Below, piece after piece: positions 5,482 to 55,876 of a stretch of 63,709 nucleotides of DNA. The stretch covers positions 1-63,709 of IMG/VR virus record IMGVR_UViG_3300022072_000008. The stretch is one strand, 5' to 3'. This DNA comes from a virus. Lineage: Duplodnaviria > Caudoviricetes. A program made the position numbers and the translations under genes. Under the pieces are notes generated by a model. The model was given only the letters and a program-made list of their open reading frames with translations, was not told the origin of the DNA and searched no databases. Positions within the stretch are counted from its first letter, which is position 1; each line of letters opens with the position of its first letter.

Positions 5482-5498
5482 TATAAGCTAGGCTTATT
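5482..5498. promoter_or_regulatory. Dispersed 17-bp palindromic operator-like site
   Basis: TATAAGC-TAG-GCTTATT, 2 nt before the next ATG. Confidence 0.7.
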
Positions 5499-5500
5499 AT

Positions 5501-5731
5501 ATGTGGTCAATTATTATTGCTATTGCTCTAATCGACAGTGGGGGGCGGGAGACACCGAAGTTGGTGTCCAGCTACCCCACTCTTAGAGAGTGTCGCTTGG
5601 AACTTTTAGAAGTAGCAAAGTCACTAGATTATGAGTTGGTGGTCAGCCCATTGCTCGGTTATTCCGTAAAAAAGGATAGTGAGGGCAAGACTATAGTGTT
5701 GTTCTGTGTCCAAAATCAAAAAGGTGTGTGA
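5501..5731 (+). CDS. Hypothetical protein with N-terminal hydrophobic segment
   Basis: ORF within the operon; signal/TM-like N-terminus; two Cys. Confidence 0.5.
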   Translation: MWSIIIAIALIDSGGRETPKLVSSYPTLRECRLELLEVAKSLDYELVVSPLLGYSVKKDSEGKTIVLFCVQNQKGV

Positions 5732-5913
5732 TGTGGTCTAGCCCTTTGGAATTATACCCAGTGCATGTGTCACCTGATGTGGCACCTGTCGGTCACAGGC
5801 TTCTTATTGAGCCGCAGACTCACACAGTGAATGCGGAGTATCTTGTTGTTCAACCATCAAGAGAACCATACGGGATTCCCGTAGAGTACACACGGAGGTT
5901 ATGGATATGCTAG
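5728..5913 (+). CDS. Hypothetical protein
   Basis: Overlaps both neighbours (GTGA coupling). Confidence 0.45.
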   Translation: MMWSSPLELYPVHVSPDVAPVGHRLLIEPQTHTVNAEYLVVQPSREPYGIPVEYTRRLWIC

Positions 5914-6338
5914 CAGAATTGGCTATTGCAAATGCTGCCTTCGCAGTTATCAAAACCACACTAGCAAACGGAAAGGAAATTGCTGACGCTGGTGCCTCAT
6001 TAGGGAAATATTTTGGAGCGGAAAAGGCGATAGCTAAACAAGTAGCTAGTGGGTCTGGCAACGTACTAGAGGCTTTCCAAGCAAAGGAAGCTCTTGTTAG
6101 GCAAGAAGAAGAACTTAAATTTATGCTTAATAAACAGAGGCTGCATGGTTGGGTGGACTTTTTGGCATTCAAAGCCCAGTACACAAGAGATTTAAAAGAA
6201 GCGGAACTCGCAGCGCGCAAACAAAAGGCAGCAAAAGCCAAAGCATTAGATGAAAATTTGATGGTAGCCATGAAAGTGTTTGGCATATTAATTGTGATAC
6301 TGGGCGCGCTGTTCGGGGTCGCTATTTACGTGAGGTAA
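5901..6338 (+). CDS. Coiled-coil protein with C-terminal TM helix (lysis region)
   Basis: Helical Ala/Lys-rich body; hydrophobic C-terminus VFGILIVILGALFGVAIYV. Confidence 0.55.
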   Translation: MDMLAELAIANAAFAVIKTTLANGKEIADAGASLGKYFGAEKAIAKQVASGSGNVLEAFQAKEALVRQEEELKFMLNKQRLHGWVDFLAFKAQYTRDLKEAELAARKQKAAKAKALDENLMVAMKVFGILIVILGALFGVAIYVR

Positions 6339-6340
6339 CT

Positions 6341-6793
6341 ATGAGCTTTCTAAGTTTTTTAAGTCCAATTGCTAACTTAGGGTCAACTTACCTGGAGGGT
6401 AAGAACCAAGTGGCGAAAGCTAAATCAGCCGCCGCTATTGTTGGCTTACAAGCCGACGCAGAAGTAAAAGTAGCGGGGGCAAAAGCGGCAAACAAGCTAG
6501 CGGACAACGGACAGACGCAAGAATACAACCTTGATTTGGTGGCAATGCAACAGATGGATAAGTCATTCTTAGACGAGATTATGATTGCATTATTGCTGGT
6601 GCCTATTGCGGCGTCATTTTTAGGCTACCAAGCCGAAGTCACTGCTGCGTTTGAATCATTCGCTGCAATGCCAGATTGGTACCAGTATCTAGTGTTGGGA
6701 GTGTATGTCGTAAAGTTTGGGATGCGGGGTTTATTGACTAAGCTAATGTCAGGCAAGTTAGGAGCCTTAAACGCGAAAAAGCCCCAGCTTTAA
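6341..6793 (+). CDS. Putative holin
   Basis: Two C-terminal TM segments with a P.WYQY motif and basic tail; upstream of the endolysin. Confidence 0.55.
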   Translation: MSFLSFLSPIANLGSTYLEGKNQVAKAKSAAAIVGLQADAEVKVAGAKAANKLADNGQTQEYNLDLVAMQQMDKSFLDEIMIALLLVPIAASFLGYQAEVTAAFESFAAMPDWYQYLVLGVYVVKFGMRGLLTKLMSGKLGALNAKKPQL

Positions 6794-6800
6794 TATATAA

Positions 6801-6817
6801 TATAAGCAGTGCTAATA
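6801..6817 (+). promoter_or_regulatory. Dispersed 17-bp palindromic operator-like site
   Basis: TATAAGC-AGT-GCTAATA in the intergenic gap. Confidence 0.7.
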
Positions 6818-6830
6818 CATTGAGATACAC

Positions 6831-7052
6831 ATGTCTGATTTAGAAAAACGTATGACAAAAGCCGAGTATGTTTTAGAAGCTCAGGCGGACCAGATTGAAG
6901 AGCTGGAAGAAGCCCTGAAAGGGCTAAGTACGACGCTCAATGGTATAGAAAAACTTTTAGCTCAGATCAAGTGGATTGCAGTCGGAGCATTGCTGGTAGT
7001 TGCTATCAGTGACCACACATTTAGCTCAACCTTAATGAAGTTACTCTCATGA
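6831..7052 (+). CDS. Coiled-coil plus TM protein (holin/XhlA-like)
   Basis: Heptad N-terminus, then KWIAVGALLVVAI; ATGA overlap with the endolysin. Confidence 0.45.
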   Translation: MSDLEKRMTKAEYVLEAQADQIEELEEALKGLSTTLNGIEKLLAQIKWIAVGALLVVAISDHTFSSTLMKLLS

Positions 7053-7423
7053 ATGAATGGAAATATTTTACTGAAGACGAACTAAAGTGTAGCCATTCTG
7101 GAAAATGTTTGATGGACCCAAGCTTCATGCTGACGCTCGAAGCTATCCGTATAAAATGCGGGTTCCCCTTTACTATTACTTCTGCATACCGCGACCCAAC
7201 ACATCCCATCGAAGCTAAGAAATCAAAGCCCGGCTCTCACGCAAGTGGTCGTGCTGTAGACATCGCTGTGCGCGGCGACAAAGCCGTCAAGTTAATCAAG
7301 GTTGCTTTTGAGTTTGGTATTACAGGCATTGGCGTTCAGCAAAAAGGCGGCAGTCGGTTTATACATCTTGATGACTTGAGACTTGAAGACGGGTTTGCTC
7401 GACCAAATATTTGGAGTTATTAA
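7049..7423 (+). CDS. Endolysin, peptidase M15A (Zn) family
   Basis: ITSAYR, SHASGRAVDI (H-x6-D) and FIHLD motifs. Confidence 0.9.
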   Translation: MNEWKYFTEDELKCSHSGKCLMDPSFMLTLEAIRIKCGFPFTITSAYRDPTHPIEAKKSKPGSHASGRAVDIAVRGDKAVKLIKVAFEFGITGIGVQQKGGSRFIHLDDLRLEDGFARPNIWSY

Positions 7424-9018
7424 TGGCTACTTTTAGCGTCTCACAATTTAACGGCATTGCCCCTAAGATTGCCCCTCGTTTGCTTGGCGAATCTATCGCA
7501 CAAGCTGCGGACAACGTGCGCTTAGACTCGGGCCGTGTTGAGGCGCTACCAAACCACAGTGCTTCGGTTTACACAGTGCCAAGCACAACGAACACAGTGT
7601 ATCTATACTCTGGTTCGATCTGGAAGAATTACAACGCAGAAGTAGATATTGTAGAAGGTCCAATTGTTAATGATGTAACTGAGCGGGTCTACTATACGGG
7701 TGAAACGTACCCGAAGATTTATCGAAACGATGGAGGTCCTTATCGTTTAGGAGTTCCAGCACCTACAGCAGCACCTACCGTAGCCGTGACGGGCACTGCT
7801 GATTTGGATGAACTTGAGGAGAGCCGTAGCTATGTTGTCACATTTGTCACAAGTTGGGGCGAAGAGGGCCCTCCATCCAGCGCAACGACACCAGTTTCGT
7901 TCCGGGATGGACAAAGTGTTACGGTCAACCTGCCAAGTATACCTACTACTGCTGGCCTTAATTTTAACTCAGGTGCTCTTAAACGTATTTACAGAACAAA
8001 CACCGGTAGCACATCCACAGGTTTTCAGTTCGTTGCCGAAGTAGCTTACACCGCAACAACTTACACGGATACAATAGCGAACAACGCACTGGGAGAAGTA
8101 ATCCCCTCAGTTACGTGGATGCGACCACCTGACGACGACACGACGTTATTTCCAACAGGTGCAATGCAAGGGCTTTGCTCAATAGGCAACGGCATAATGG
8201 CAGGGTTTACAGGTAAAACGTTATGTTTCAGTGTGCCTTACCTACCACACGCATGGCCTGTGAGTTATCAGCTTGCTACCGAATCAGAGATCGTAGCGAT
8301 CAAGCCAACGCCCGGCGGACTAGTCGTGGGGACCAAAGGCAAACCGTACATTGCCCAAGGTTCAGATCCGTCAGCCATTAGCTTAATACAACTAGAAAGC
8401 GACCAAGCGTGCGTGAGCAAGATGTCCATGGTTGATATGGGTGGCTATGTTATTTACGCCTCACCTGATGGCTTGGTGACAGTGCAGGGTCAACAGATAC
8501 AGTTAGTGACTGACGCATTGCTACGCCGCGCGCAGTGGCAAGCCTACAATCCTACAACGCTAAAAGCGATGAATTACGAAGGCACATACATTGCCTCGAA
8601 CGCAACACAAAGCATTGTCTTTGATCCGCGTGGCGCAAAGAACGCGTTGTCGACGATCAGTGATACGTTTAAAGCTGCATACAACCATTTAGAAACAGAC
8701 ACGTTGTATTTTGTAGACAGTACGTCGGTTAAGAAGTTTGGGCAGGGTTCAGGTTCGTATACATTAACTTGGAAATCAAAACCGTTTGTGAGTGCTCAAC
8801 CACGTAACTTTGGCTGGGCGCGGCTCGATGCTGCAAGCTACCCTGTCACGTTTAAACTTTACACAGACTCGACTTTGGAATTTACACACAGCGTCTTAAA
8901 TAGTGAGCCTTTTAGATTACCTTCTGCAAGTCGCGCAAAATCCTGGGAGTTTGAAGTTTCTGGGACAGCGTCAGTGAACAGCGTATCAATTGCAGATAAT
9001 GCGGCTGAACTTCTATGA
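7423..9018 (+). CDS. Podovirus tail nozzle / tail-tube B-like protein
   Basis: Start is probably ATG 7423 (TAATG overlap, GGAG RBS). F.GIAP.I.PRLL N-terminus; YVVTFV..WGEEGPPS, FSVPYLPHAWP and WKSKPF motifs. Confidence 0.6.
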   Translation: MATFSVSQFNGIAPKIAPRLLGESIAQAADNVRLDSGRVEALPNHSASVYTVPSTTNTVYLYSGSIWKNYNAEVDIVEGPIVNDVTERVYYTGETYPKIYRNDGGPYRLGVPAPTAAPTVAVTGTADLDELEESRSYVVTFVTSWGEEGPPSSATTPVSFRDGQSVTVNLPSIPTTAGLNFNSGALKRIYRTNTGSTSTGFQFVAEVAYTATTYTDTIANNALGEVIPSVTWMRPPDDDTTLFPTGAMQGLCSIGNGIMAGFTGKTLCFSVPYLPHAWPVSYQLATESEIVAIKPTPGGLVVGTKGKPYIAQGSDPSAISLIQLESDQACVSKMSMVDMGGYVIYASPDGLVTVQGQQIQLVTDALLRRAQWQAYNPTTLKAMNYEGTYIASNATQSIVFDPRGAKNALSTISDTFKAAYNHLETDTLYFVDSTSVKKFGQGSGSYTLTWKSKPFVSAQPRNFGWARLDAASYPVTFKLYTDSTLEFTHSVLNSEPFRLPSASRAKSWEFEVSGTASVNSVSIADNAAELL

Positions 9019-10604
9019 CAAAGAAACATATCGCACGGGCATTACCTGCGCTTCCGCCACGTATTGACCCTGAATTAAAACCATTGCTCACAGCGATAAA
9101 AGAAGTGCTGGAAGTGCAGGTCGGTCATCGTGGCGAAGACCTAGACAAAGCGGTTACGTTCCGAGATCTAACAGAATCTGGCATTGCTAACTTAGGCAAC
9201 CAAAGCAGTGTTGGCACATTGGTACCCATCTCTGATGTGGGCATACAAACACCCCCACCAGAGCCAGTTACTCTTACTGCGGCTGCAACTTTTACCAACG
9301 TTCTTTTGTCTTGGGGCGGCGGTTTTAAACACGACTTAGTTGCCTCTACTGAGGTATATCGCAGCACCTCTAACAGTTTAGCTACAGCTAGCCACATTGG
9401 TAGCACCTCGTCGTTTATTTACACAGACACTGTTGAGCCCTCAACCACTAACTATTATTGGGTTAGGTTTCGTTCACCAGCTGGTGTGGCTGGCCCGTAC
9501 AATGCAACTGCTGGAACATCGGCGGTGACCTCAAGTATTAATGATGCTATTCCTGACGCCACAATTAACGTAGCCAAGATAGCAAATTTGGTAGTCGATA
9601 TGGCTAGTGTCACAGGCACATTAACCGCAAGCCAAATTTCTGCAGGTTTAATTACATCGAATATGGTTGATGCAGCGGGTATTAGTGCAGACAAGATCAC
9701 GATGGACGGCAATATTGAATTTGCCAATACAGCTTCAGGTGTTCAGTTTGGTAAGACAGCGTTAGGTGATTCTCAAGCGGGGGCATTTTTTGGGCGGTCT
9801 GGTGGAGTGGCTGGCTTTAACATCTCATCGAGTACGAGCGGTATTTACGCAGACTCCGCTGGTCAAGTGGCATTGAACAACGTGCGCTTGTACACGGGTT
9901 CGGCTGGCTCGGCAGCAGAGTTTCCAAACCCTGGCACTTTTACACTTAACATCTCGTCAATTAGTACAGCTATCACTGTCATTATTATAGGCGGCGGCGG
10001 TGGTTCATGTAATGCTGGCGTGTATAACCCACCTTACGGAAAAATAGCGGGTACTTCAGGAACAGCTTCGTGGTTAAAGTGGTATTCAGGTTTGAACGGG
10101 ACAGGTAGTGTACTAGCTACTTACACAGCCGCTGGCGGGGCTGGGGTGGCTGCAGGGTCAGTTGGGTCAAACAGAAGTAGTGCGTCTGGTGTGTCTGGGC
10201 AAGCCTCATCAAAAGCAGCGGGAGGCGCTGGTGGCAATTATTCAGGCGGTTATGGCGGTCACGGTACTTTCGGGTCTGGTGGCGGCGGCCCAGCAGGTTC
10301 AGACACTTACAACGGGTCATCGAATGCTCCTGTTAATGTAAGTGCTGGAGCGGGAGCAACTGTTTCGCAGCTAATCAACAAACCCAGCGGCGCACAAAGC
10401 GTCAAGCTTTTTGTAGGCACTGGCGGCACTGGCGGACAAGGCTTTAGCCAATTCATTGGGGGCAACGACAATGTTCAAGGAGCAAATGTCGCCGGAGGAG
10501 GTAACGGCGGTAACGGCTTTGTATCAGTGGCTGATCCGAACTCAGGCGGCATTGAAGTGGATCTACTTTCAATCGTTAACCGACTTACAGCAGCAGGTAT
10601 TTAA
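9015..10604 (+). CDS. Tail fibre / host-specificity protein with FN3-like and Gly-rich domains
   Basis: EVYRS..YYWVRF FN3-like segment; I..AKIA.L repeats; C-terminal GGGGG/GAG-rich domain. Confidence 0.7.
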   Translation: MTKKHIARALPALPPRIDPELKPLLTAIKEVLEVQVGHRGEDLDKAVTFRDLTESGIANLGNQSSVGTLVPISDVGIQTPPPEPVTLTAAATFTNVLLSWGGGFKHDLVASTEVYRSTSNSLATASHIGSTSSFIYTDTVEPSTTNYYWVRFRSPAGVAGPYNATAGTSAVTSSINDAIPDATINVAKIANLVVDMASVTGTLTASQISAGLITSNMVDAAGISADKITMDGNIEFANTASGVQFGKTALGDSQAGAFFGRSGGVAGFNISSSTSGIYADSAGQVALNNVRLYTGSAGSAAEFPNPGTFTLNISSISTAITVIIIGGGGGSCNAGVYNPPYGKIAGTSGTASWLKWYSGLNGTGSVLATYTAAGGAGVAAGSVGSNRSSASGVSGQASSKAAGGAGGNYSGGYGGHGTFGSGGGGPAGSDTYNGSSNAPVNVSAGAGATVSQLINKPSGAQSVKLFVGTGGTGGQGFSQFIGGNDNVQGANVAGGGNGGNGFVSVADPNSGGIEVDLLSIVNRLTAAGI

Positions 10605-10636
10605 TTAACTAAACAGTACTCACAAAGGTAATAAAT

Positions 10637-11368
10637 GTGGCATCAGTCAAACGGCAGCGCATTAGTACTCAAGAAGCACGGATGAAATCATCGTTAAAGT
10701 TTGCAGAGGATCGAGAAAGACCGCCATTACAACCCAAGACACCGAACCAAGATAAGTATCTCAAAGCATTAAAAAACCCACACTGCCCAGTGATCATTGC
10801 ATCGGGTGTAGCGGGGTCAGGAAAAACCTACCTAGCGTGCGCATATGCCGCTGACCAATTCATGCAGAACCGCGTACAAAAGATTATCTTGTGCCGCGCA
10901 AACATTCCTACTGGCCGAAGCCTCGGCGCATTCAAAGGTGACAAAGACGACAAGATGATGAACTGGGTTATGCCTATGGTCGACGTCTTAAAGCAACGCA
11001 TGGGTGCAGGTCGGTTTGATACCGCATTAGCGAATGGCAATATAGAGCTACAGCCATTAGAAACTATTCGTGGTCGATCTTTTGGCGGTGATAAAGAAGG
11101 TGCGATTGTTTTAATAGACGAAGCACAGCAGATGACAGTCGAAGAAATAAAAGCGGTGACCACTCGAATTGGTGAAAACTGTGTGTTGGTGTTGATGGGT
11201 GACTTGGCTCAATCGGACATTAAGCAGTCGTCAGGTTTGGGGGTATTAATTAAATTGCTGGATAAACATAAGCTGCCGATTACAGTTATCGACTTTGAGA
11301 TCTCAGACATCCAGCGTAGTGATACGTGTCGAATGTTCGTAGAGTTATTCTATAAAGAGGGTATATGA
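10637..11368 (+). CDS. phoH: PhoH-family ATPase
   Basis: PKT.NQ..Y, Walker A GVAGSGKT, RGRSF, IDEAQ, TRIG, GDLAQSD. Confidence 0.93.
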   Translation: MASVKRQRISTQEARMKSSLKFAEDRERPPLQPKTPNQDKYLKALKNPHCPVIIASGVAGSGKTYLACAYAADQFMQNRVQKIILCRANIPTGRSLGAFKGDKDDKMMNWVMPMVDVLKQRMGAGRFDTALANGNIELQPLETIRGRSFGGDKEGAIVLIDEAQQMTVEEIKAVTTRIGENCVLVLMGDLAQSDIKQSSGLGVLIKLLDKHKLPITVIDFEISDIQRSDTCRMFVELFYKEGI

Positions 11369-11369
11369 T

Positions 11370-11576
11370 ATGGAAGCATTATGGGAAGCGTTAGCATTTT
11401 TAGTGCAGGCGATTACAATTGGAGGGATAGCTGGCGTCGTGCTAGCGATCATTGGTATAGTGCCTGTAGAGATTCACCGCAACATAGAGCTGCACGTTAA
11501 CAACAAGGAAGAAGGAGAAAGGATTTTAAAATCCTGGGGGCTGGCTTTAGGTACTGAACCAGAGGAAGATGAGTAG
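11370..11576 (+). CDS. Small membrane protein
   Basis: Hydrophobic N-terminal half, acidic tail; last gene before attP. Confidence 0.55.
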   Translation: MEALWEALAFLVQAITIGGIAGVVLAIIGIVPVEIHRNIELHVNNKEEGERILKSWGLALGTEPEEDE

Positions 11577-11846
11577 GTCAGTGCGTAGGTTTTACCTGCG
11601 CAATTTCCTACGCAGTACCTAATTGCACTTAATTGTAAGTTATTGCTTTACATTGCTTTTAATTGCACTATAATAGCAGCGTGAACGGGCTAGGAAATCA
11701 ACTAAGTTGTTGATATATATGGAGATATACCTTAGCTAACGCTAACGAGTCCCGTCCGTTCCGCCATTTTTAATTCTCCATATATATCAGTGACATAGCA
11801 CTGGTAACAATGACTAATACGCACTTTCCTACGCAGTGAGTAGGAA
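11570..11846. other. attP: attP site: tRNA-Asp 3'-end core with IHF site and arm-type repeats
   Basis: Core CGAGTCCCGTCCGTTCCGCCA at 11746-11766 matches the 3' end of enterobacterial tRNA-Asp as recalled. IHF consensus WATCAANNNNTTR on the minus strand at 11703-11715. TTTCCTACGCAGT repeats at 11604-11616 and 11825-11837. Adjacent to the integrase. Confidence 0.88.
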
Positions 11847-11879
11847 CAGTGTTATATTAGGCGTGTTAAGGAGAACACT

Positions 11880-13049
11880 ATGGCCACATACACCCCACTC
11901 AAAGATAAGACAGGCAAAATAACTGCACATCGTTTTCAAATAAGGAAACGAGGGTATAAAGAAAAAACTAAGCAGTTTACCACCAAAGGAAAAGGTGAGC
12001 GTTGGGCTAAGAAAACCGAATCTGAAATGGATGCTGGTTCATACGAAAGCACATCGAACGCTGGACGTTGGACGCTGGGCGCTGTTATGGCCGAGTACCT
12101 CGACAAAATACACCCTATCAAACCTTTTTGTAAATCCAAGAAGAATGCACTACTTCGTTTAATCGAACACCCGATGGCGTCAGTCAGTATTGTGGATCTT
12201 ACTACTCACCATTTCTATGAATTTGCAAAGTATCGTTCAGAGCATGGTGCGGGTCCAAAAACTGTAGCAGATGATATTGGGTATATAAGCAAAGCGCTGA
12301 CGTATGGTCGCGCCATTTTAAAAATACCTAATGCAACTAAGCCGCTAGACGAAGTTAGACCTGTGCTAAATGACTATGGGTTAACTGGTTCGAGTAATAA
12401 GCGCAAACGCAGACTTGTGCCAGGAGAGTTTGAGGCGCTTATGTCTGTACCCCACAGAAAATATGATGGGGCTAGAAGCAATGACAAGGTCATGACTCGG
12501 CTAAGAATGAAATACATTATTCCTTTAGCACTTGAGACAACGATGCGGGAATCAGAAATTGCTCGAATGAAGATTGATGATGTTAATTTTGAGGAAGGGG
12601 AGCTGATGATTTGGGCGCGAAAGCACCCAACAAAGAAGGAAACAAACGATCAGTTAATTCCTCTTACAGAAGAAGCTAGAAAAGTTTTGCGAGAGTATTT
12701 GAACTTAGGCATTCACACTAAAGGCAAACCTTTGTTCTGGCCAGTAAAAGCTAAGAACATGGGTGACATGTTTCACACAATGGCTGAGAAGAGTGGGATT
12801 AATGAAGTGGGTAGCAGTGTTAAGTCAAACTTTAATAACTTGACGTTTCATGATTTGAGGCACGAAGCAATCACACGATTGTTTGCGGAAGGGTTTAAAG
12901 CGGAGGAAGTGATGTTGTTCTCAGGTCATACCGACATGAAGTCACTGTTGATCTATGTAAACCTCACCCCAGCCGATGTCCTACGCGCTAAGGAAATACG
13001 GCGCGTGATCATGGAACAACGGCTAGACGAGATTAGTTTAGCTCTTTAA
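11880..13049 (+). CDS. int: Tyrosine integrase
   Basis: Catalytic R (TTMRESE), K (RKHP), HDLRH, SGH and Y (LIYV). Confidence 0.95.
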   Translation: MATYTPLKDKTGKITAHRFQIRKRGYKEKTKQFTTKGKGERWAKKTESEMDAGSYESTSNAGRWTLGAVMAEYLDKIHPIKPFCKSKKNALLRLIEHPMASVSIVDLTTHHFYEFAKYRSEHGAGPKTVADDIGYISKALTYGRAILKIPNATKPLDEVRPVLNDYGLTGSSNKRKRRLVPGEFEALMSVPHRKYDGARSNDKVMTRLRMKYIIPLALETTMRESEIARMKIDDVNFEEGELMIWARKHPTKKETNDQLIPLTEEARKVLREYLNLGIHTKGKPLFWPVKAKNMGDMFHTMAEKSGINEVGSSVKSNFNNLTFHDLRHEAITRLFAEGFKAEEVMLFSGHTDMKSLLIYVNLTPADVLRAKEIRRVIMEQRLDEISLAL

Positions 13050-13272
13050 TTTCAGCAGCGGACAACGCGCATTGCTCGTCGACGTATGCTGCAAGATCAG
13101 ATAAACGCATCATGCGTTTTTTGCCAAGCGTGAATGTGGGCACTTCAAAACGTCCACAATAAACGCTTTGTTGTAAGGTGCGCTTTGGTACGCCAAGCAA
13201 GTCACTGACTTCGTCAAGGCCGATAAACGGCTTGTTAAAAAGATCAGTGAGTAGAGTCTGAGTCGTCTTCAT
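13033..13272 (-). CDS. Excisionase/AlpA-like HTH protein
   Basis: IGLDEVSDLLGV...FEVPTF.LGKK...DLAAYVD; convergent on the integrase; start is probably ATG 13272. Confidence 0.65.
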   Translation of the reverse strand: MKTTQTLLTDLFNKPFIGLDEVSDLLGVPKRTLQQSVYCGRFEVPTFTLGKKRMMRLSDLAAYVDEQCALSAAEIKELN

Positions 13273-13483
13273 AAGATTCAACCAGTTTGTTGAGATACCA
13301 CGCTGCCTTTTTGGCATCCTCTGCGGTGTCCCATTTCTCTCTCCATAGGTATTTAATTACGGTGGCTCTGCAGTGGGCTCGGAATCCTTCCGGTCCTAGT
13401 GCAGCGCGTATGGCGTCAATGCATTGCATCCCTGTATCAGATTGGTAATGCACAGGTTGCTCAACCATGTCGTGTTCTTTCAT
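13244..13483 (-). CDS. DUF3310 family protein
   Basis: DMV.QP.HY...CID.I...KYLWR...ED.KKA.WYL signature; start ATG 13483. Confidence 0.85.
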   Translation of the reverse strand: MKEHDMVEQPVHYQSDTGMQCIDAIRAALGPEGFRAHCRATVIKYLWREKWDTAEDAKKAAWYLNKLVESYEDDSDSTH

Positions 13484-13485
13484 AT

Positions 13486-13502
13486 TATTAGCTCTGCTTA
13501 TA
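13486..13502 (-). promoter_or_regulatory. Dispersed 17-bp palindromic operator-like site
   Basis: Minus strand TATAAGC-AGA-GCTAATA, 2 nt before ATG 13483. Confidence 0.7.
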
Positions 13503-13530
13503 TTGGAATGCAAAAAAATAGAAACTATTT

Positions 13531-13731
13531 TTATGGGGGGCCTTGCTGACATTGCTTGTAGTCGTTGTTGCCAAATGATGTTGCCATCCCTGCAAACCAA
13601 GGCTCCATGACGCCATAAATAGGGGCAGTGACAGCAAAGGTATCAGTGTGGATTAAGTGCCACTCCCAACATTCTTCTTGCATCCACGCCTTCTTTTTGG
13701 ATTGATTGTTATTAAGTTGGCTAACTATCAT
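13531..13731 (-). CDS. Hypothetical protein
   Basis: Abuts the repressor stop codon. Confidence 0.5.
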   Translation of the reverse strand: MIVSQLNNNQSKKKAWMQEECWEWHLIHTDTFAVTAPIYGVMEPWFAGMATSFGNNDYKQCQQGPP

Positions 13732-14403
13732 TTAAAATTGCACCCCTCTTATTAAACCGCAAACGCTAATGCTTGGGTCTGATAAATCGACGGTGGTGTT
13801 AATACCGACTTCTGTTGGGTGGTACGTTTGTACTTCGTCACCTTTGATACCGCTAACAACACGAATAATACAAGCGCCTTTTCCGTAACGGACAAGGACC
13901 TGATTCCCTATCTCCCATTTAGCTAATGGGTCAATGATTGCATATTCGCCGTTGCTGTATCGAGGTGAGTATTCGTCTGTGTCTATTTCAACGGCGAACG
14001 CTCCTGACATTGTGTGTGTCATAATACTAACAACTCTATTTAAAACGGGTTTCCCCGAAAGTGTAATTGACACCGGAATTTCTGACCTCATCGTAGGGCT
14101 AACTGCGTTCAAGAGCTTATATTCTTCAAGCTCTGCCACTAAAGCCCCAAGGTCACAACGAAGTAACGCTGACACGCTTAATACCATCATAGGGTTGATG
14201 GATACTGCGCCGCTCAACATCTGATTAAACATCGGCTGTGAAACACCGATCTGATCCGCTGCATTCTTTTGGGTTAACTCCGACCCTAGTTTTCCGTTTT
14301 TGTATTTCCTCCATTCGTTATTAATTCTTCGGGACATCTCAAGAGAGTCAGCAGAAATTAGCCTTAGCGGTTTTGTAGATTTACTCTTTTGTGATTTGTC
14401 CAT
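13732..14403 (-). CDS. CI/XRE-like repressor (HTH plus degenerate S24-like domain)
   Basis: LTQKNAADQIGVSQPMFNQMLSG HTH; C-terminal FAVEI...P.Y..GEYAIIDP...G.I.G. Confidence 0.75.
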   Translation of the reverse strand: MDKSQKSKSTKPLRLISADSLEMSRRINNEWRKYKNGKLGSELTQKNAADQIGVSQPMFNQMLSGAVSINPMMVLSVSALLRCDLGALVAELEEYKLLNAVSPTMRSEIPVSITLSGKPVLNRVVSIMTHTMSGAFAVEIDTDEYSPRYSNGEYAIIDPLAKWEIGNQVLVRYGKGACIIRVVSGIKGDEVQTYHPTEVGINTTVDLSDPSISVCGLIRGVQF

Positions 14404-14794
14404 TATGTCTTGTCTCCATACAGAATTCTGTAAGCCATTTCGATACTTCTTTATTTGAAATGATTGTGTGTTTTTTAATTCCGTTTATCCATTGTTCTTT
14501 CTCGGTGAGAAGAAAACCCCCTGATGGGGACCCTATAATACAAGCACAGCTTATCGAATGTCCAGACATTTTTATTAGCCATGCTAATTGCTGTGCAGAA
14601 AGGTTTGGTTTTATGAGTGTGGTGTCACGTTTTGGTAGCTTAGCAATCCACTTATACTCGACCCATATGTTTGCAGCAGGGCCGGAATACCAACAGTCGG
14701 GGACACCGCCTGCGTAGTTGTCGTGGATTTTCCACTTGTGCATTTCTGAAGGAAGGGGGCGGTGGATGGAACGGATGTATCCGTGCTCATTCAA
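14381..14794 (-). CDS. PD-(D/E)XK (VRR-NUC/resolvase-like) endonuclease
   Basis: GGVPD..., WVEYK and LSAQQLAW motifs; probable TTG start at 14794. Confidence 0.75.
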   Translation of the reverse strand: MNEHGYIRSIHRPLPSEMHKWKIHDNYAGGVPDCWYSGPAANIWVEYKWIAKLPKRDTTLIKPNLSAQQLAWLIKMSGHSISCACIIGSPSGGFLLTEKEQWINGIKKHTIISNKEVSKWLTEFCMETRHNGQITKE

Positions 14795-14830
14795 AAGGTA
14801 GGGCCTCTTTACTGAGGGCTCCATCCACCA

Positions 14831-14859
14831 TAAAAGGGCGTCACTTCCATACAACGCCC
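14831..14859 (-). terminator. Intrinsic terminator-like hairpin
   Basis: Minus strand GGGCGT-TGTATGGAAGTG-ACGCCC followed by TTTTAT, just after the 14872 stop. Confidence 0.55.
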
Positions 14860-14871
14860 GGTGCGCAGCGG

Positions 14872-15612
14872 TTAGGCTGCTTTTTGGTCTACGTGACCAG
14901 ACAGATGCTTGTAAGCTTCTTCTGCCTTAGCGTGTAGGTCAGGGGATGCCCAGCCTTTGCGCTCGATCTTGTAGTTAAGATACGTCTTACCGTTCTTCTT
15001 ATTCTCTTCTGTGATACCGGCTACGGCCCACACAGCTGAGAAACGATCGCCGCCCGCTGCTGCAATCTGATTGTTCCAGCGATTAGACACTTTGGCCTTG
15101 GTACGAGGGAACTTCATGATAGCGCCAGTGGCTTTACCAGTTTCGAGATTGAGTACAAGAACGTAGTGACGAGGTGAATCGTTTACGTCGTAGTTATCAA
15201 TGTCTTCGAATTCTGCAGAGGGGCTGTTGAACGCTTGCTCAATGGCTTCTTTAGACTCGAATTCTTTGGTACTGGTTCCCGCGTCGACGAACGGGTAGTT
15301 GGTGTTCTTGTTCCACGCCATCCAGAAATGATCGTAGTACACATTGACTACTAAACATTCTGACATGATCTCGCGAGTCTGGTCATTGAACATCATGCCG
15401 GGCTTCGCACCAGGAATATAACGTGCATGACTTTCGTCACATTCGTTGCTGATCTTTTGGAGCAGCTTGATCTCTGGAATATCATCGGAGGAAACAGTAA
15501 CGTTTTCGTTGCCGAGGCCGGCAGCGTTGGTTACGTGGTCTGGGGTGTCATCAATTAGCATTAAGCTTGATGGAGTTGTGATTTCTTTTTTAGGCATTGT
15601 ACGTTTACTCAC
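14872..15612 (-). CDS. Putative single-stranded DNA-binding/replication protein
   Basis: IPEIKLLQ..S...YIPGAKPG motif; position in the replication cluster; alternative start ATG 15597. Confidence 0.45.
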   Translation of the reverse strand: MSKRTMPKKEITTPSSLMLIDDTPDHVTNAAGLGNENVTVSSDDIPEIKLLQKISNECDESHARYIPGAKPGMMFNDQTREIMSECLVVNVYYDHFWMAWNKNTNYPFVDAGTSTKEFESKEAIEQAFNSPSAEFEDIDNYDVNDSPRHYVLVLNLETGKATGAIMKFPRTKAKVSNRWNNQIAAAGGDRFSAVWAVAGITEENKKNGKTYLNYKIERKGWASPDLHAKAEEAYKHLSGHVDQKAA

Positions 15613-15656
15613 TGTAGTTACATTGGACGCTGAACCCTGTTGGGTAGCATAGTTAT

Positions 15657-15698
15657 TATAAGCCCTGCTTATAGTTATGTATATAAGCTGGGCTTATT
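15657..15698. promoter_or_regulatory. Tandem pair of 17-bp palindromic sites
   Basis: TATAAGC-CCT-GCTTATA (15657-15673) and TATAAGC-TGG-GCTTATT (15682-15698). Confidence 0.75.
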
Positions 15699-15701
15699 TA
15701 T

Positions 15702-16076
15702 TTACAAAGCTCGAAGGTTTAACTTACGGTCTTTGAAAATCTCGACACCAGGGACTTCATGTCCGAGGTTTAATAGCTCACGAAACGCTGCTGCACTCAT
15801 GCGTTTTTGCAAGAGGTAGAACGAGTCATTGGTCTTGATGTAGTCGTACACAAGATCCCAATCTTTGACAGTAGGTACGTCAGTCTCTGAGATAGAGACG
15901 TTGGCACTAAGACCGCCGATACGCTTGGCACCTTGGTCGTCCATCTTGACCATGATCTCGCTGGATAAGTTTTTGAAGTCTTCCTTGAGTGCGTTGACTT
16001 TCTTTTCGTCAGCACGGATTACTTCGCGTAGTTGATGTGCCTGTTCGATCAGGTCACCTAGTTTTGAATCAGTCAT
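15702..16076 (-). CDS. Coiled-coil phage protein
   Basis: Start MTDSKLG; P.V.DWD..Y.YI...LLQKR.S pattern. Confidence 0.65.
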   Translation of the reverse strand: MTDSKLGDLIEQAHQLREVIRADEKKVNALKEDFKNLSSEIMVKMDDQGAKRIGGLSANVSISETDVPTVKDWDLVYDYIKTNDSFYLLQKRMSAAAFRELLNLGHEVPGVEIFKDRKLNLRAL

Positions 16077-16407
16077 TGGTACTCTCCTCGTTGGTAATTT
16101 TATAATCAAAAGGTTCCATTAAAAATTCTTCGGTGTAAAAAGTATCACCATCGTGATGTTCTTTAGTGGCCATGTAGCCAAACACGTTGATGTGCATACC
16201 TGATGGGCCGTATACGATAAAGTTTAATCGCCTACCATCTTCTTGGACGATCTCTTCGTCACCGTCCGACACTGACCAGATTTGCGATTCTGCATACCCG
16301 AGTTTCATTAACTCATGGGGGGAATTTGCGTAATCACCACAGCAATTGCCGTCACTGTCCATTCGTGAAACTTGTTCAAACGGGAACTCTTTGTTGTAAT
16401 CTGTCAT
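16069..16407 (-). CDS. Hypothetical acidic protein
   Basis: Coupled overlaps with both neighbours. Confidence 0.6.
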   Translation of the reverse strand: MTDYNKEFPFEQVSRMDSDGNCCGDYANSPHELMKLGYAESQIWSVSDGDEEIVQEDGRRLNFIVYGPSGMHINVFGYMATKEHHDGDTFYTEEFLMEPFDYKITNEESTND

Positions 16408-43818: not shown

Positions 43819-43850
43819 TTTTATTTAATTTTTTTATAGGTGATTTTCTC

Positions 43851-44960: not shown

Positions 44961-44976
44961 ATAATTAGGGCCTCTT

Positions 44977-45003
44977 CCCCCGGCAGGACGCTGGGGGCTT
45001 TTT
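44977..45003 (+). terminator. Intrinsic terminator after the capsid gene
   Basis: CCCCCGGC-AGGAC-GCTGGGGG-CTTTTT. Confidence 0.75.
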
Positions 45004-45015
45004 GGAGTTTTATAT

Positions 45016-45387
45016 ATGTTGATTTCTGATAAGGCAATGCACGTAAGCAGTACGACAGGCCAATCGGCTTGGTTTGAAGCTGGTGTTGCGCGGGAAGTCC
45101 CACTACCTTTAGTGGACCAATGTATTGCTGCAGGAGCATATCCTGTAGGCGAGAAAAAATCAGCGCAAAAACCTGCGTCTGAAAAAGTCGAAGTAAATGA
45201 GGTTTCAGATGAAGACCGCATTATGGAGATTGTCACTGCCATTGAGCAGTTGGTAGAGAAAGGTGACACAAAAGCCTTCTCAAAAAACACGGGTGAACCA
45301 AAAGTTCGCAGCCTAGAAAAAGTTTTGGGTTACGACATCACTCCTGAGCAACGCGATGTAGCGTGGGCTGAACTTAGCGAGACGTAA
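45016..45387 (+). CDS. Hypothetical virion-associated protein
   Basis: GGAG RBS; G.PKV..L...LG..IT...RD.AW C-terminal motif. Confidence 0.6.
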   Translation: MLISDKAMHVSSTTGQSAWFEAGVAREVPLPLVDQCIAAGAYPVGEKKSAQKPASEKVEVNEVSDEDRIMEIVTAIEQLVEKGDTKAFSKNTGEPKVRSLEKVLGYDITPEQRDVAWAELSET

Positions 45388-46043
45388 TGGCCATTTCATC
45401 GAACGACATTATCGGTAAAGCACAGACGGTTTTGCAGGATATAGCAGGCACCCGATGGACAACAACGGAGTTGCTTTCGTGGTTAAACGACGGGCAGCGT
45501 GAAGTCTGCTTGCTCAAGCCTTCTGTTAGTGCAACTAACCAGTCTGTAACTTTAGTTGCTGGAACAAAGCAAAACATTCCAGCTACGGGTCTGCAGGTAT
45601 TACGTATTGTGCGAAATTTAACTAGTACAGGGGCAGGCGGCAAGGTAGTCCGAGTTATTAGTCGCGACGTCTTAGATACGCGCAAGCCACTATGGCACAC
45701 CGCAACAGCGACAACGCTTGCCGACCATTACACCTTCGATGAGTTAGACCCCAGGACTTTTTATGTATACCCACCTAACACTGGTAATGGGTATATTGAA
45801 GTTGTTTTTTCTGTACAACCAACACAGGTTGCAGCAAACGGAAACATAACCATTCCTGACATACACGCAAACAACTTGTTGGATTACATTTTGTACCGCG
45901 CTTACGCTAAAGAAGCGGATAACGCAGGTAATGGCGCACGCAGCGCCCAACACTATAAAGCAATGCAAATGTCTCTTGGCATAAAAATACAGCTAGACAG
46001 TGTAACAAGTCCAAATACGCGCACAGTGCCAACACAGGGTTAA
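45387..46043 (+). CDS. Head-tail adaptor (DUF6682-like)
   Basis: LQD....RW...ELL.WLNDGQ; FYVYPP; DYILYRAY.K. Confidence 0.7.
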   Translation: MAISSNDIIGKAQTVLQDIAGTRWTTTELLSWLNDGQREVCLLKPSVSATNQSVTLVAGTKQNIPATGLQVLRIVRNLTSTGAGGKVVRVISRDVLDTRKPLWHTATATTLADHYTFDELDPRTFYVYPPNTGNGYIEVVFSVQPTQVAANGNITIPDIHANNLLDYILYRAYAKEADNAGNGARSAQHYKAMQMSLGIKIQLDSVTSPNTRTVPTQG

Positions 46044-53400: not shown

Positions 53401-55823
53401 ACGCTTACATCGTGTTATCCAAAGATATAGGCAACCCTTATCGGCAGGCGCTTGTTGCCGCAGTGCTAGGGCACGAACTTGGCCACGTATTGTTTAAAGA
53501 GTCTATTAATAGCTTATCCAAAGAGAACCTTGCGCGTTTAAAAAAGGCTTATCAGGAACAGCTAAAGACAAAGAGCAATAAGCAATACACCAATGACGAT
53601 GCTGGCTTTGAAGAATGGTATGCGGATCAGGTGTCTGCGTGGGCTGGCAAACAAACCAAAACTCCAGGGAAGTTTGCTGAGTCGCATTTCAAACGTATAG
53701 GTTTGAAGATGCAGCAGATTTGGCGCAAGTCACGCTCCTTTGTGCGTCAGATGTTCCGTGGGGCAACTGACGCCCAGAAAGCGCAGACTAGAACCCTTAA
53801 AGATCGTTTTACTCTAGATGAAACCTTTGAACAGTACATGAACAGTGTGTTGGAAAGCATTAATGTACAAGAGTCTACTGCGGGATCAACAAGTGGGTCG
53901 ACAACCGGAGGTAAGATTTTTGAGAACCTCGGTCAGTTGGAAGGAACGCCGTTAGTAACAAAGCTCGTTGAGGCTATGCGTAAAATATGGGACTCAGGTT
54001 TTGTCGATGGGCTAATGAAAATTATCTTGTCAGCAGACCAATACGCCCGGGTTCGTTTAGGTAAGCTAGGTCCAGCGTTCGCTAATTTGTTTTACCACCG
54101 CACTCAGTCTGTAACTCAAGGCTTAGGCAACATGCTTAACAAAGCAAACCATGCTTTGGATAAATGGAACGCACAGTTTGCAGAGATTATCGGGGAAGAC
54201 ACAGAGCGATCTAGCAAGGTACTTGCAGAAATGCAGTCAGGTGTATCAATCGAAAATTCCATTGACCCAGAAATGCGTAGGCAGCTTGCAGATTTCTTTG
54301 AGCGTTTTCATAAAGACTATTTAGCGAAGCGTATACCTAACATAGGTAAGATTAAAGATTATTTCCCTGTCGTGTATAACATTGCGGCAATACAAGCAAA
54401 CCCTGATGCGTTCTTGGCAGAATTACAAAAAGCGGGTTTAAACAAACGGCAATCACAAACGGTCATGCGCACTATGTTAGAAAACAACGGCGCATTTGTT
54501 GACGATTCCCCCAATCAAGAAATCTTCGGGCCTCAGTTTAATTCTAGGTTGCAACGTGCTCTAAAGAATATGGATACAAAAGCAATGCAAGACCTTGGCT
54601 TCTACCAAGATCCGTTAATTGCTGTGCAGTCCTATTTGAAACAAGCCACAAAACATGCGGAATATAATGCAGTAAAAGCCGAGGCTGAAAGACTCATTAA
54701 CAGCATGAACCCTAAACAACAGGCTCAAGCTCGCAAAATTGTACTCGGCTACATGGGCAGACTTGGCGCAGAGATAGATCCTACTTGGAACAAGTATCAG
54801 TCATACATTGCAGCGTTACAGTTTGCCACAACCTTAATGTTTTCTGTAGTCGCGTCGTTCACAGACCTTGCTAACCCTATTATCCGTGCCAAAGATATGG
54901 ACGGTTTCAAGAGCGCTTTGAGCAATTGGCGTAAATACATGAGTAAACAAAGCCGCGAAGAAATGGCCGAGTTTGCTGAGCGCATAGGTGCTGCATCCCG
55001 CGAAGCAGTTCAAGAAGCTTTACACCAAGCAAACAACTCAGAGTTTATGGAGGCAGGCGCGCGTAAATGGTCAGATAAGTTTTTCAAAGCTATTGGCCTT
55101 GAACAGTGGACTAGGATGACTCGAATTATTGCAGCGAGTATGGGCCGTGACTTTATTGTTACTCACTCCAGAAAAGCAGCAGCAGGCGATGTGCAGAGTA
55201 TACGTTACTTAAAAGAACTCGGGCTCACCCACCAAACTGTAGCAAAAGCGTACAACCAAGAAACAGACACGCTTGATATTTCAACGCCGGAGGGTGAAGC
55301 AGTACAAGAAGCCATACTTAATTTTGTAGATGAATCAATCATACGGCCTAATGCTGCACAACGTCCTGTTTGGGCTAGTGACCCGCATTACATGTTGCTA
55401 TGGCAACTAAAAAGTTTCTTCTATTCATTCGGGCAGATCGTAGTGGGTGGCGTCGTTAGAGAAATGAAGGCACGTTACAAAGAAGGCGACAAGGTTGGTG
55501 CTATGATGCCTCCAATGATTTTGTTTGCTGCACTAATGCCATTGGCTGCTTTAGGACTGCAAACACGCGAACTAATCAAGGGTGCTTTCAAGGAGCCCCG
55601 CGAAAAGGAAGAGGATGAAGTGGCCTATGTTTTCGATCTAGTCGATCGCGCTGGCATACTTGGACCCCTTTCTATCATCAAATCTATGTTTGATGCAGAG
55701 AGCAGCGGACGAAGTGCTTTAGTTTCAGTCATGGGTCCAACGGCTGGAAGCATTGAAACATTTGTTAACGGCGACTTGGGCGACCTAGCAAAACGGCTAA
55801 CCCCCATTTACTCACAGTTATAA
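50469..55823 (+). CDS. Large ejection/polyvalent protein with zincin motif
   Basis: 1784 aa; Gly/Ala TM-like N-terminal region, (KP)9 linker, GHELGH..FEEWYAD, helical C-terminal domain. Confidence 0.7.
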   Translation: MSGNLLRDINSLKLDIEKQAETKSSGLPGRIALLRQDLDAGMILTPQNLTPMDAGMEAGRQGLKSAKNTALSAGNYLIGDDEAGADYLKEAQAIDGQVGRLSGQYTSFEEFIDDPGFSNFAEMTTFKLGQAVPSAIESFASGTAGAAMGFVGSGGVGAIPGFVGGLVAKGKAKRMIRDAIIDYAQGKATDEQKNVAQQALKFGAVNSYNSAKRGIVPGAKIGAMSSGYYQGVSASFGESVETGQDRQEAAGIAALMGIPFAAADVAPEILFVKSLAKLGKSTGDTSALRAFGGTVLKQGAAEALAEGSQESLIVAQRFQQDPNYDAERAVMRIADSAYSGLVAGKALGVTSGTVNAALTTARNALNKTRQTIHEKTAPDAETVKNFEFDDLSPEGMAQVPLNELVYAVQDVQEGQTFEADPISQEHAAAAIQELNRRAEEMGQNRFQELVMRELNAGKTADPSSELEQATPNESDLPEAGATEQRAVDNYEDEDIATAETTQGFEERLLGHKNKKALVGYKIGSNGLKDRLAELQEENPGRQYRLVQKDGKGYVEEVVESSFDVTEIVNEGITKARAGVLKKGVDRTVPATDPQGKDFKLAPTELAFAGQRANNKDKANAANMTYPQLIMSGLLRMVQELTEKGFKMDLDALPDNTVIIRGKAKNDVPVRTQYTWGDLKRAWAQRKDTREGSAFDGLNAKEQKLIETEEQIEKLGRNPYVGATRNELDELIIQRDAQLAEIESRDDTETDTTVMGTIQQEQEEQKARILDEDGKAITYPNTKSRKGKIRTAPKDESISYGVVKKKGKPASEAQQKVLDNRAKRKAKKTADAQERRERIEQDKKDKQAEVDQTKQATQERVAKTKAKRDAAKPKPKPKPKPKPKPKPKPKQEQKPQPKAKPLTRKESGKVSFYGTFPDVFARYANAIISAVGIKTKVHIMWADDLQAFNEQNGNPIGEASVKNAIDGTLKGFVAQRDGNAYIVLSKDIGNPYRQALVAAVLGHELGHVLFKESINSLSKENLARLKKAYQEQLKTKSNKQYTNDDAGFEEWYADQVSAWAGKQTKTPGKFAESHFKRIGLKMQQIWRKSRSFVRQMFRGATDAQKAQTRTLKDRFTLDETFEQYMNSVLESINVQESTAGSTSGSTTGGKIFENLGQLEGTPLVTKLVEAMRKIWDSGFVDGLMKIILSADQYARVRLGKLGPAFANLFYHRTQSVTQGLGNMLNKANHALDKWNAQFAEIIGEDTERSSKVLAEMQSGVSIENSIDPEMRRQLADFFERFHKDYLAKRIPNIGKIKDYFPVVYNIAAIQANPDAFLAELQKAGLNKRQSQTVMRTMLENNGAFVDDSPNQEIFGPQFNSRLQRALKNMDTKAMQDLGFYQDPLIAVQSYLKQATKHAEYNAVKAEAERLINSMNPKQQAQARKIVLGYMGRLGAEIDPTWNKYQSYIAALQFATTLMFSVVASFTDLANPIIRAKDMDGFKSALSNWRKYMSKQSREEMAEFAERIGAASREAVQEALHQANNSEFMEAGARKWSDKFFKAIGLEQWTRMTRIIAASMGRDFIVTHSRKAAAGDVQSIRYLKELGLTHQTVAKAYNQETDTLDISTPEGEAVQEAILNFVDESIIRPNAAQRPVWASDPHYMLLWQLKSFFYSFGQIVVGGVVREMKARYKEGDKVGAMMPPMILFAALMPLAALGLQTRELIKGAFKEPREKEEDEVAYVFDLVDRAGILGPLSIIKSMFDAESSGRSALVSVMGPTAGSIETFVNGDLGDLAKRLTPIYSQL
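53079..53135 (+). repeat. Hexamer microsatellite (AAGCCA)x9 encoding (KP)9
   Basis: Nine tandem units, one with a synonymous AAACCA. Confidence 0.95.
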
Positions 55824-55876
55824 GCACAGATTATTGAATAATGATATACTGTTTTTGCGTATAAGCAGTGCTTATT
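55819..55876 (+). promoter_or_regulatory. Pair of palindromic sites before the tail/fibre genes
   Basis: TATAAGC-ACA-GATTATT (55819-55835, imperfect) and TATAAGC-AGT-GCTTATT (55860-55876). Confidence 0.7.

Follow-up and report, generated by a model that had tools for sequence, protein, structure and literature searches.

Operators of phage lambda are 17 bp long and twofold symmetric, with adjacent operators arranged in tandem, and immunity through operators dispersed over a genome is, to our knowledge, described from a few model phages only, namely P1, the cluster A mycobacteriophages and phiC31. P1 has a single immunity repressor, C1, and 22 dispersed, asymmetric 17-bp operators (PMC8546580). 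In mycobacteriophage L5, gp71 has more than 20 sites, which follow the direction of transcription, lie in short gaps between genes and at promoters, and are thought to stop both initiation and elongation (PMC9283540, PMC5712189); the lytic phage D29 has no repressor and yet keeps the L5 stoperators (PMC5712189). The genome analysed here is the IMG/VR record IMGVR_UViG_3300022072_000008 (63,709 bp, IMG/VR completeness rating 100%; G000, called the window at its full length), which is a temperate podophage-like genome containing about 19 copies of the 17-bp dyad TATAAGC-N3-GCT(T/A)ATA in a network that spans 5482-55876. From the sequence and by analogy with known repressors, here it is proposed, with slightly better than even confidence, that these sites are the dispersed operators of a lambda-CI-like dimer encoded at 13732-14403 (P0002).

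The exact pattern TATAAGCNNNGCTWATW (TATAAGC-N3-GCTWATW) has 15 strand matches at 12 distinct positions (5482, 6801, 13486, 15657, 15682, 23376, 23774, 34151, 37313, 43588, 43802 and 55860), against 0.00 expected from 100 dinucleotide shuffles, and TATAAGCNNNGCTTATA with up to two mismatches has 17 sites against 0.29 expected, the largest count in a shuffle being two. A preliminary description of this DNA had listed 17 positions under one pattern; 12 fit it exactly, whereas five are variants with one (26150), two (27848, 31604 and 55819) or three (26117) mismatches to the perfect palindrome, and two copies had been missed, 14539, added by the two-mismatch scan, and 14573 (AATTAGCATGGCTAATA, minus strand), with three mismatches. 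The half site reported at 34128 is present, so that the working set comprises 19 full sites and this half site. Among the 19 full sites, the upstream arm (positions 1-7) has T15 A19 T19 A18 A19 G19 C19, the spacer (positions 8-10) has A15 at its first position and is otherwise free, and the downstream arm (positions 11-17) has G19 C18 T18 (A10/T9) A17 T19 A14. Conserved bases in the arms around a free centre are the signature of a dimeric DNA-binding protein.

Thirteen of the 19 sites are wholly intergenic, in a window of which 5.2% is intergenic by the gene list made here, which agrees with the earlier remark that most copies sit in short gaps between genes. Two sites straddle a gene end (26117, 55819) and four lie within coding sequences (CDSs; 14539, 14573, 23376, 27848), where only two copies inside CDSs had been counted before. 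The tandem arrangement seen earlier corresponds to five real pairs (14539/14573, 15657/15682, 26117/26150, 34128/34151, 55819/55860), with a spacing of 23-25 bp at 15657/15682 and 34128/34151. Nearly every operon is preceded by one or more sites, and the distance from the motif end to the next start codon falls into a start-codon group (-1, 2, 2 and 2 nt), a short group (10, 13, 15 and 15 nt), a middle group (31, 31, 32, 32, 32 and 44 nt) and a long group (69, 73 and 246 nt). The ten sites with A at motif position 14 are all oriented with local transcription, three on the plus strand (6801, 37313, 43588) and seven on the minus strand (13486, 14573, 23376, 26117, 27848, 31604, 34151), extending the three plus and five minus copies for which this orientation had been noticed.

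Neither PHROGs and Pfam scans of the 88 open reading frames (ORFs) of the window nor PDB sequence searches with the ORFs of 640, 817 and 1784 aa turned up an RNA polymerase or sigma gene, and the hosts of the relatives are Proteobacteria; host sigma-70 promoters were therefore taken as the reference frame. In most copies the downstream arm with the next one or two bases is -10-like, reading TAATAT, TATAAT or TATATT. At three of the 19 copies (13486, 26150 and 34151) TTGCAT, TTGCCT and TTGCTT, respectively, stand exactly 17 bp before T13, and the same layout of TTGCnT, 5 nt and the motif recurs in other lineages, in L118 and L123 and at position 33844 of a prophage of Motiliproteus coralliicola (MOT). 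Weaker -35-like matches (four of six bases), read from the flanks, are TTAATA at 6801 and TTTACT at 55819, and most sites are without a good -35. At 37313 and 43588 the copies read TGCTAATAT, with a TG extension instead of the -35-like TTGCnT, as had been noted for the extended -10-like sequence of some copies. In 13400-15800, both minus-strand promoter-like matches fall on sites (14539 and 15657); site 14539 occupies the spacer of a TGGACA-18-TATTAT match, and at MOT 41034 the dyad likewise fills the -35/-10 spacer. Thus, the position of the dyad relative to -35 and -10 varies while overlapping core elements, which suits an operator better than it does an activator site or a promoter element of fixed position. 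If T13 is -12, the dyad centre would lie near -16, a position for repression. The alternative raised earlier, a phage-specific promoter, keeps the part that in many copies the downstream arm would also serve as a -10 element of the sigma-70 type, but no phage polymerase or sigma factor was found to read it. A TTGACA beside the tandem pair that precedes the CI-like gene of the Motiliproteus prophage was not called a promoter by the scan and was not used.

At the copies 5482, 13486, 23376 and 26117 the start codon lies within 0-2 nt, and at the half site 34128 within 8 nt. The spacers of these start-adjacent copies are AGA-G, TAG-G or AGG-A and resemble Shine-Dalgarno sequences, and GGG-type spacers occur in the related genomes G002, G003 and G004. 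A transcript starting 7 nt past the motif would cut off the Shine-Dalgarno sequence or ATG, so these copies would have to be transcribed from upstream and could act only as in-operon operators (roadblocks), like the L5 stoperators. A reading of the sites as terminators was rejected, a T run following only 43802 and the real terminators being separate GC-rich hairpins.

The position of the copies next to ribosome-binding sites also bears on an RNA motif, a 7-bp hairpin bound by a phage protein, e.g., the CsrA-like protein encoded at 23834-24058, or setting the stability or processing of the mRNA, which is considered improbable. The sense orientation, the many copies 0-15 nt before start codons, the purine-rich, Shine-Dalgarno-like spacers of the start-adjacent copies (AGA-G three times, TAG-G), the co-variation of the arms among lineages and the conservation of the CsrA-like gene in G000, G001 and G003 would all suit such a motif; however, 10 of the 19 copies fold as RNA no more stably than shuffles (-0.9 kcal/mol or weaker), since the oriented variant sets A opposite A in mid-stem. 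In addition, a conserved stem with a free loop is the reverse of what RNA-binding proteins such as CsrA recognise, site 43588 is 246 nt away from its start codon, RNA cover first appears at or beyond site 37313, and no Rfam family or tRNA was found in the window. The weak folding, the conserved arms and the lack of an Rfam or tRNA match rank an RNA-hairpin function low. The CsrA-like gene and the DNA polymerase gene overlap at the end of the latter; the former is conserved in the same place in G001 and is present in G003.

Ranked lower still, as very improbable, is a role as DNA-hairpin promoters read by a phage RNA polymerase that has gone unrecognised, on the pattern of the phage N4 virion polymerase. 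A 7-bp stem with a 3-nt loop, three copies with ATG 3 nt past the stem, which would put the loop centre at -11, and the large ORFs of 640, 817 and 1784 aa without assigned function could be accommodated by such promoters, but PHROGs, Pfam and PDB sequence searches gave no RNA polymerase signature, the annotations of the KPP25 group list no RNA polymerase, several copies have sigma-70-like -35 and -10 elements at fitting spacing, and the loop base is not conserved.

In the relative G001 (61 kb; capsid protein 88% identical to that of G000) there is a counterpart for every G000 site but 5482, whose region G001 lacks. When the DNA upstream of the capsid gene is aligned for the window and 15 distinct relatives, site 43588 is invariant in 15 of the 16 sequences, L036 having T at position 4; the DNA upstream of the site has diverged, and conservation begins exactly at the site and takes in the leader behind it, which is about 197 nt long. 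At site 43802 the relatives keep the left arm, and the right arm drifts yet retains CTTATAAT. The leader between the two sites (43605-43801) is highly conserved in 10 relatives, with a consensus fold of 47 pairs, seven of them with compensatory changes, and no Rfam match; it may be a structured 5' untranslated region controlling capsid expression.

In the genome of Motiliproteus coralliicola (4.2 Mb), which carries an integrated, related 60-kb prophage in one scaffold, 17 of the 18 exact TATWAGC-N3-GCTDATA positions are inside the prophage. In lineages further away the 7-3-7 dyad persists, but the sequence of both arms differs, having changed to TATAGGT-N3-ACCTATA in G002 and G005 and to TATTAG-N5-CTAATA in G003, with counts at up to one mismatch of six (TATAGGT type) and four (TATTAG type) against none expected. 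In KPP25, dyad and k-mer counts and a reading of the intergenic regions gave no comparable palindrome network, and the available text of the papers on the KPP25 group says nothing on promoters. The positional conservation in relatives that the preliminary description had set as a check is found and, judged from these comparisons, the network is phage-internal, old and under selection. A motif that is uniform within a genome and changed between lineages requires a phage-encoded, sequence-specific reader, and each of the lineage-specific half-sites TATAAGC, TATTAGC and TATAGGT would seem to mark an immunity specificity of its own.

P0002 is the only helix-turn-helix repressor candidate among the 88 ORFs of the window with PHROGs and Pfam, the other DNA-binding match being the excisionase-like protein. 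PHROG_4, 'transcriptional repressor', covers residues 21-181 (E-value 4e-7), and phmmer aligned P0002 with the lambda repressor (3bdn_A, E-value 0.014) such that both glutamines of the helix-turn-helix face glutamines. The AlphaFold model has a mean predicted local distance difference test (pLDDT) score of 56, with 62-87 in the N-terminal domain, which Foldseek superposes on 1lmb_3 with a template modelling score of 0.75 and a root-mean-square deviation of 1.5 A over 76 columns, and the predicted DNA-binding fold is thus lambda-like. Homologs with 65-100% identity are present in 17 IMG/VR contigs (13, and four more from a second scan); 12 of the first 13 were examined, and each of the 12 has the motif and shares the recognition helix of P0002. 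A 14573-type site, about 185-265 nt upstream of the CI-like match, is kept in 11 of these 12 loci, those 11 being the ones with DNA that reaches that far. A search of IMG/VR for more distant CI-like loci, in which co-variation might be followed, gave only the 65-100% relatives. The homolog in the Motiliproteus prophage is 25% identical (E-value 2.7e-7) and flanked by sites, and even at this identity G40, L43, Q45, G53, Q56, Q61 and M62 are invariant in the CI-like alignment. G000, G001, the CI-like contigs and the Motiliproteus prophage each encode the CI-like protein and have TATWAGC as the half-site.

A search of 401 genomes of the G006 class, of which 400 were scored, gave four with a match, three of them new. 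One distant homolog, in G379 (E-value 4e-7), belongs to a classical divergent switch at 9493-10392 of the gammaproteobacterial locus L141 (G379:C67), where three 17-bp TATATC-N5-GATATA dyads lie between the CI-like gene and the divergent gene and two more behind the repressor gene; this dyad has nine strand matches against 0.33 expected in 20 kb. By analogy, this switch suggests that the P0002 family reads 17-bp 7-3-7 TATA-type dyads. The other new matches, in G245 and G344, have no clear dyad.

Two other candidates were discarded. The protein encoded at 27511-27837, which the preliminary description had put forward beside the CI-like protein, has no homolog in G001, which carries the same motif, and no DNA-binding signature in PHROGs or Pfam. 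The only other repeated element of the window, GGTCATGAA, is absent from G001, whose CI-like protein has the same recognition helix, and was rejected as a shared operator. Its five copies (36178-36296) lie in a 770-bp non-coding gap (35984-36756) as three direct repeats about 20 bp apart and an inverted pair with 15-bp arms; they are iteron-like and may form an origin for the primase-helicase.

In the proposed mechanism, a single helix-turn-helix repressor of the phage, most likely P0002, would bind the dyad as a dimer and use it as its operator, and about 19 operators, one or two ahead of nearly every operon, would replace a single cluster. In the promoter copies, the gene-proximal arm and the next one or two bases would serve as the host sigma-70-type -10, which some copies would combine with a TTGCnT 17 bp upstream and others with a TG extension; initiation would be blocked because a dimer with its centre near -16 covers the -10. 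In the in-operon copies, placed on the ribosome-binding site or start codon, the free 3-bp spacer would supply the Shine-Dalgarno purines, and the dimer would be a stoperator-like roadblock. In a lysogen, the early, replication, packaging, capsid, tail and lysis operons would each be silenced individually by the repressor.

Several observations weigh against P0002 as the reader of these sites, or against part of the mechanism. No Pfam family matches P0002 at an E-value of 0.01, its C-terminal half is modelled as all-beta at pLDDT below 50, and what links the protein to the sites is co-occurrence and family analogy. Searches with phmmer and a profile found no CI-like homolog in G002, G003, G004, G005 or KPP25 (best E-value above 0.8), and G002, G003 and G005 carry networks of their own despite this. 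The operon 35983-34309 of G000 has no site of its own; in G001 the equivalents of its genes seem to come directly after the divergent site at 25731. The many copies 0-15 nt from start codons cannot be promoters of the adjacent genes. The upstream arm is near-invariant (A at position 4 in 18 of 19 sites), whereas the downstream arm varies (A10/T9) and is always oriented with transcription; a symmetric dimer alone does not require this strict orientation or the invariant upstream arm, which the overlap with -10 explains only partly. RNA is represented by four freshwater metatranscriptomes, compared with one 20-kb stretch as assembled contigs, which cannot prove transcription starts, and here the contig of run X3 over the capsid leader starts at 43550, upstream of site 43588.

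The networks in G002, G003 and G005 make a different shared binder possible. A different dimeric regulator of the phage, an activator or a temporal switch, might define a -35-poor class of promoters for the host RNA polymerase, with the CI-like protein acting elsewhere; this explanation is held at a fairly low probability, above that of either hairpin reading. Besides the CI-less networks of the same architecture, it draws on G003, the ends of which overlap, both repeating one CsrA-like gene, so that the record is circularly closed and probably complete, and for which Pfam scans of 53 of the 78 ORFs gave no integrase or repressor domain. G002 has an integrase, and PHROGs and Pfam named no regulator among 36 ORFs of G002 and 91 of G003. 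Consensus sigma-70 promoter matches are also scarce in 26001-46000 (13 against 29.8 in shuffles, standard deviation 6.3), where terminator-like hairpins are enriched (38 against 17.4), and with most sites short of a good -35, middle and late operons preceded by sites and a strict orientation, a promoter class of its own could be imagined. The RNA contig of run X1 (15.8 kb, depth 45) has its first base at 37336, 7 nt past site 37313, while 36006-36672 is without cover, and the RNA depth rises about 10-fold around 43550-43621 at the capsid gene; both observations would also suit the promoter overlap of the proposed mechanism, and as signs of transcription starts they are hints only. Most sites are bridged by metatranscriptome contigs, and the uncovered parts are uninformative.

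On the other side, no further helix-turn-helix, sigma or activator family was found in the 88 ORFs with PHROGs and Pfam, and no small regulator is common to G000-G003. A dimer near -16 over the -10 has the geometry of repression at bacterial promoters and not of activation, and the site shifts relative to -35 and -10 among copies. The leftward early promoter at 37313 has a site, so a later-made activator could not start the cascade. Furthermore, D29 is a precedent for a repressor-less relative with kept operators (PMC5712189). The networks without a CI-like gene could equally reflect a lost repressor with sites kept, as in D29, a non-homologous repressor or a different shared reader. The single dimeric regulator of the preliminary description, plausibly the CI-like protein, therefore stands as the best-supported reading through its fold, its being the sole candidate, the co-occurrence with the motif and the G379 switch, with the CI-less networks of G002, G003 and G005 as a limit on it. 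Regarded as doubtful is a wider statement, that the sites reveal either a CI dimer as a genome-wide silencer, with operators fused to -10 and ribosome-binding site, or an unrecognised, fast-evolving phage transcription factor with a private promoter class; the latter is raised because the CI-less relatives keep equivalent networks, and the family is one of widespread aquatic podophages.

Compared with P1, the candidate system would similarly place many operons under 17-bp operators that are scattered over the genome and overlap promoter elements, but P1 operators are asymmetric (PMC8546580) and those found here are 7-3-7 palindromes. P0002 is lambda-CI-like by its N-terminal domain, a comparison made without a direct homology search with C1. 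Late genes of P1 are controlled indirectly via Lpa, whereas the capsid and tail operons have their own sites here, and no partners like Coi, Lxc or Ant were identified in the window. As in L5, the sites lie in short gaps, have an orientation bias and are conserved in relatives; the L5 sites are, however, asymmetric, 13 bp long and recognised by a monomeric repressor that has two DNA-binding domains (PMC9283540), unlike a symmetric 17-bp dyad that implies a dimer, and here the host is proteobacterial and many copies would double as -10 or hold a Shine-Dalgarno sequence in the spacer. The likeness to P1 and L5 drawn in the preliminary description holds for the dispersed placement and the L5-type orientation and not for the symmetry of the sites; with different proteins and asymmetric sites in both, the system is a member of neither type, and the likeness is functional.

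With lambda CI, the candidate shares the helix-turn-helix N-terminal domain, the 17-bp twofold operators and tandem pairs 23-25 bp apart, as for adjacent lambda operators. In contrast to lambda, there is no tripartite operator cluster or divergent cro gene by the repressor gene in the window, the gene is co-oriented within the replication operon (all genes of 13033-37264 being on the minus strand), and about 19 dispersed sites take the place of two clusters, a divergent cluster being seen only for the distant homolog in L141. What is new would probably be a dispersed-operator immunity built from a lambda-type dimer and palindromic sites, as far as sequence and analogy indicate.

The sites and the other features of the window are collected in Table 1. 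By capsid protein, the Pseudomonas phages KPP25 and phiR18 (55%) come nearest among named relatives, and many uncultivated contigs are closer; megablast of 13000-17000 against the phage collection gave no match. The record is linear and cut within a gene, the first ORF (1-1686) being open at its 5' end at the record edge.

Table 1. Dyad sites, candidate binder gene and other features of the window
Feature	Position	Strand	Context
Plus-strand block	1-13049	+	PhoH, then integrase (11880-13049) at its end
Site TATAAGCTAGGCTTATT	5482-5498	+	2 nt before ATG 5501; spacer TAG-G, Shine-Dalgarno-like
Site TATAAGCAGTGCTAATA	6801-6817	+	13 nt before ATG 6831, endolysin operon; orthologous site in G001 at 53768
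Minus-strand block	13033-37264	-	Excisionase, CI-like gene, helicase, exonuclease, primase, CsrA-like gene, DNA polymerase
Excisionase-like protein	13033-13317	-	DNA-binding match
Site TATAAGCAGAGCTAATA	13486-13502	-	2 nt before ATG 13483 (DUF3310 gene, excisionase next); TTGCAT 17 bp before T13; identical in G001 and the CI-like loci
CI-like repressor gene P0002	13732-14403	-	223 aa; candidate binder; predicted N-terminal helix-turn-helix like lambda CI and C-terminal all-beta domain
Weak site GATAAGCTGTGCTTGTA	14539-14555	-	In CDS 14381-14854, 135 nt upstream of the CI-like start
Weak site AATTAGCATGGCTAATA	14573-14589	-	Also in CDS 14381-14854
Perfect palindrome	15657-15673	-	44 nt before start 15612; right arm and 2 nt read TATAAT
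Tandem partner of 15657	15682-15698	-	Centres 25 bp apart
Site within primase CDS	23376-23392	-	2 nt before in-frame ATG 23373; identical in G001 (10435)
Perfect palindrome	23774-23790	-	31 nt before primase start 23742
Degenerate proximal site TATAAGCAGAGCCATTA	26117-26133	-	Last base is the A of ATG 26117
Site CATAAGCACAGCTTATA	26150-26166	-	32 nt before ATG 26117; within a TTGCCT-18-TATACT promoter-like match
Site	27848-27864	-	3' end of CDS 27834-28079; 10 nt before GTG 27837
Site	31604-31620	-	15 nt before ATG 31588 (640-aa ORF); orthologous site in G001 at 19310
Half site TATAAGC	34128-34134	-	AGGA (Shine-Dalgarno-like) next; 8 nt before ATG 34119
Site	34151-34167	-	Follows terminator 34305-34286 and precedes ATG 34119 by 31 nt; forms TTGCTT-17-TAATAT
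Site between divergent operons	37313-37329	+	Plus strand reads TGCTAATAT, late/packaging operon, GTG 37345; minus strand reads GCTTATAAT, 48 nt before ATG 37264
Late plus-strand block	37345-63580	+	HNH, terminase, portal, major capsid (43851-44960), 1784-aa virion protein, GP4-type fibre proteins
Site	43588-43604	+	Head of the major-capsid leader (TGTGCTAATAT); 246 nt from start codon
Second capsid site	43802-43818	+	32 nt before ATG 43851
Weak site	55819-55835	+	Overlaps the stop of the 1784-aa virion gene
Site	55860-55876	+	32 nt before ATG 55909 (tail-fibre module)
Terminators, GC-rich hairpins	34305-34286, 36733-36754, 44977-44997		

The in-frame ATG next to site 23376 (23371-23373, minus strand) is codon 124 of the 843-aa primase, in the same arrangement in G001; it might give a shorter primase isoform, or an internal promoter might lie here. 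The ORFs of 640 and 337 aa (28642-31588, minus strand) have homologs only in genomes with TATWAGC sites (G001 and the Motiliproteus prophage) and not in G002 or G003, a phyletic pattern equal to that of the CI-like gene. The early protein P0001 (34309-34986, minus strand, 225 aa) belongs to no known family and has weak matches to ribosomal protein S10 (NusE) at residues 129-212 (best E-value 0.008, many of 0.1-1); a role in antitermination or translation is possible and is given as a lead.

If the proposal is true, gene-by-gene silencing has evolved repeatedly from ordinary repressors, here in temperate podophages of aquatic Proteobacteria. The cultured lysogen, with 17 sites in the Motiliproteus coralliicola prophage, and the short, sharply defined sites would make this a directly testable system, and the motif would be an annotation key for promoters, operon starts and immunity groups in this group of phages.

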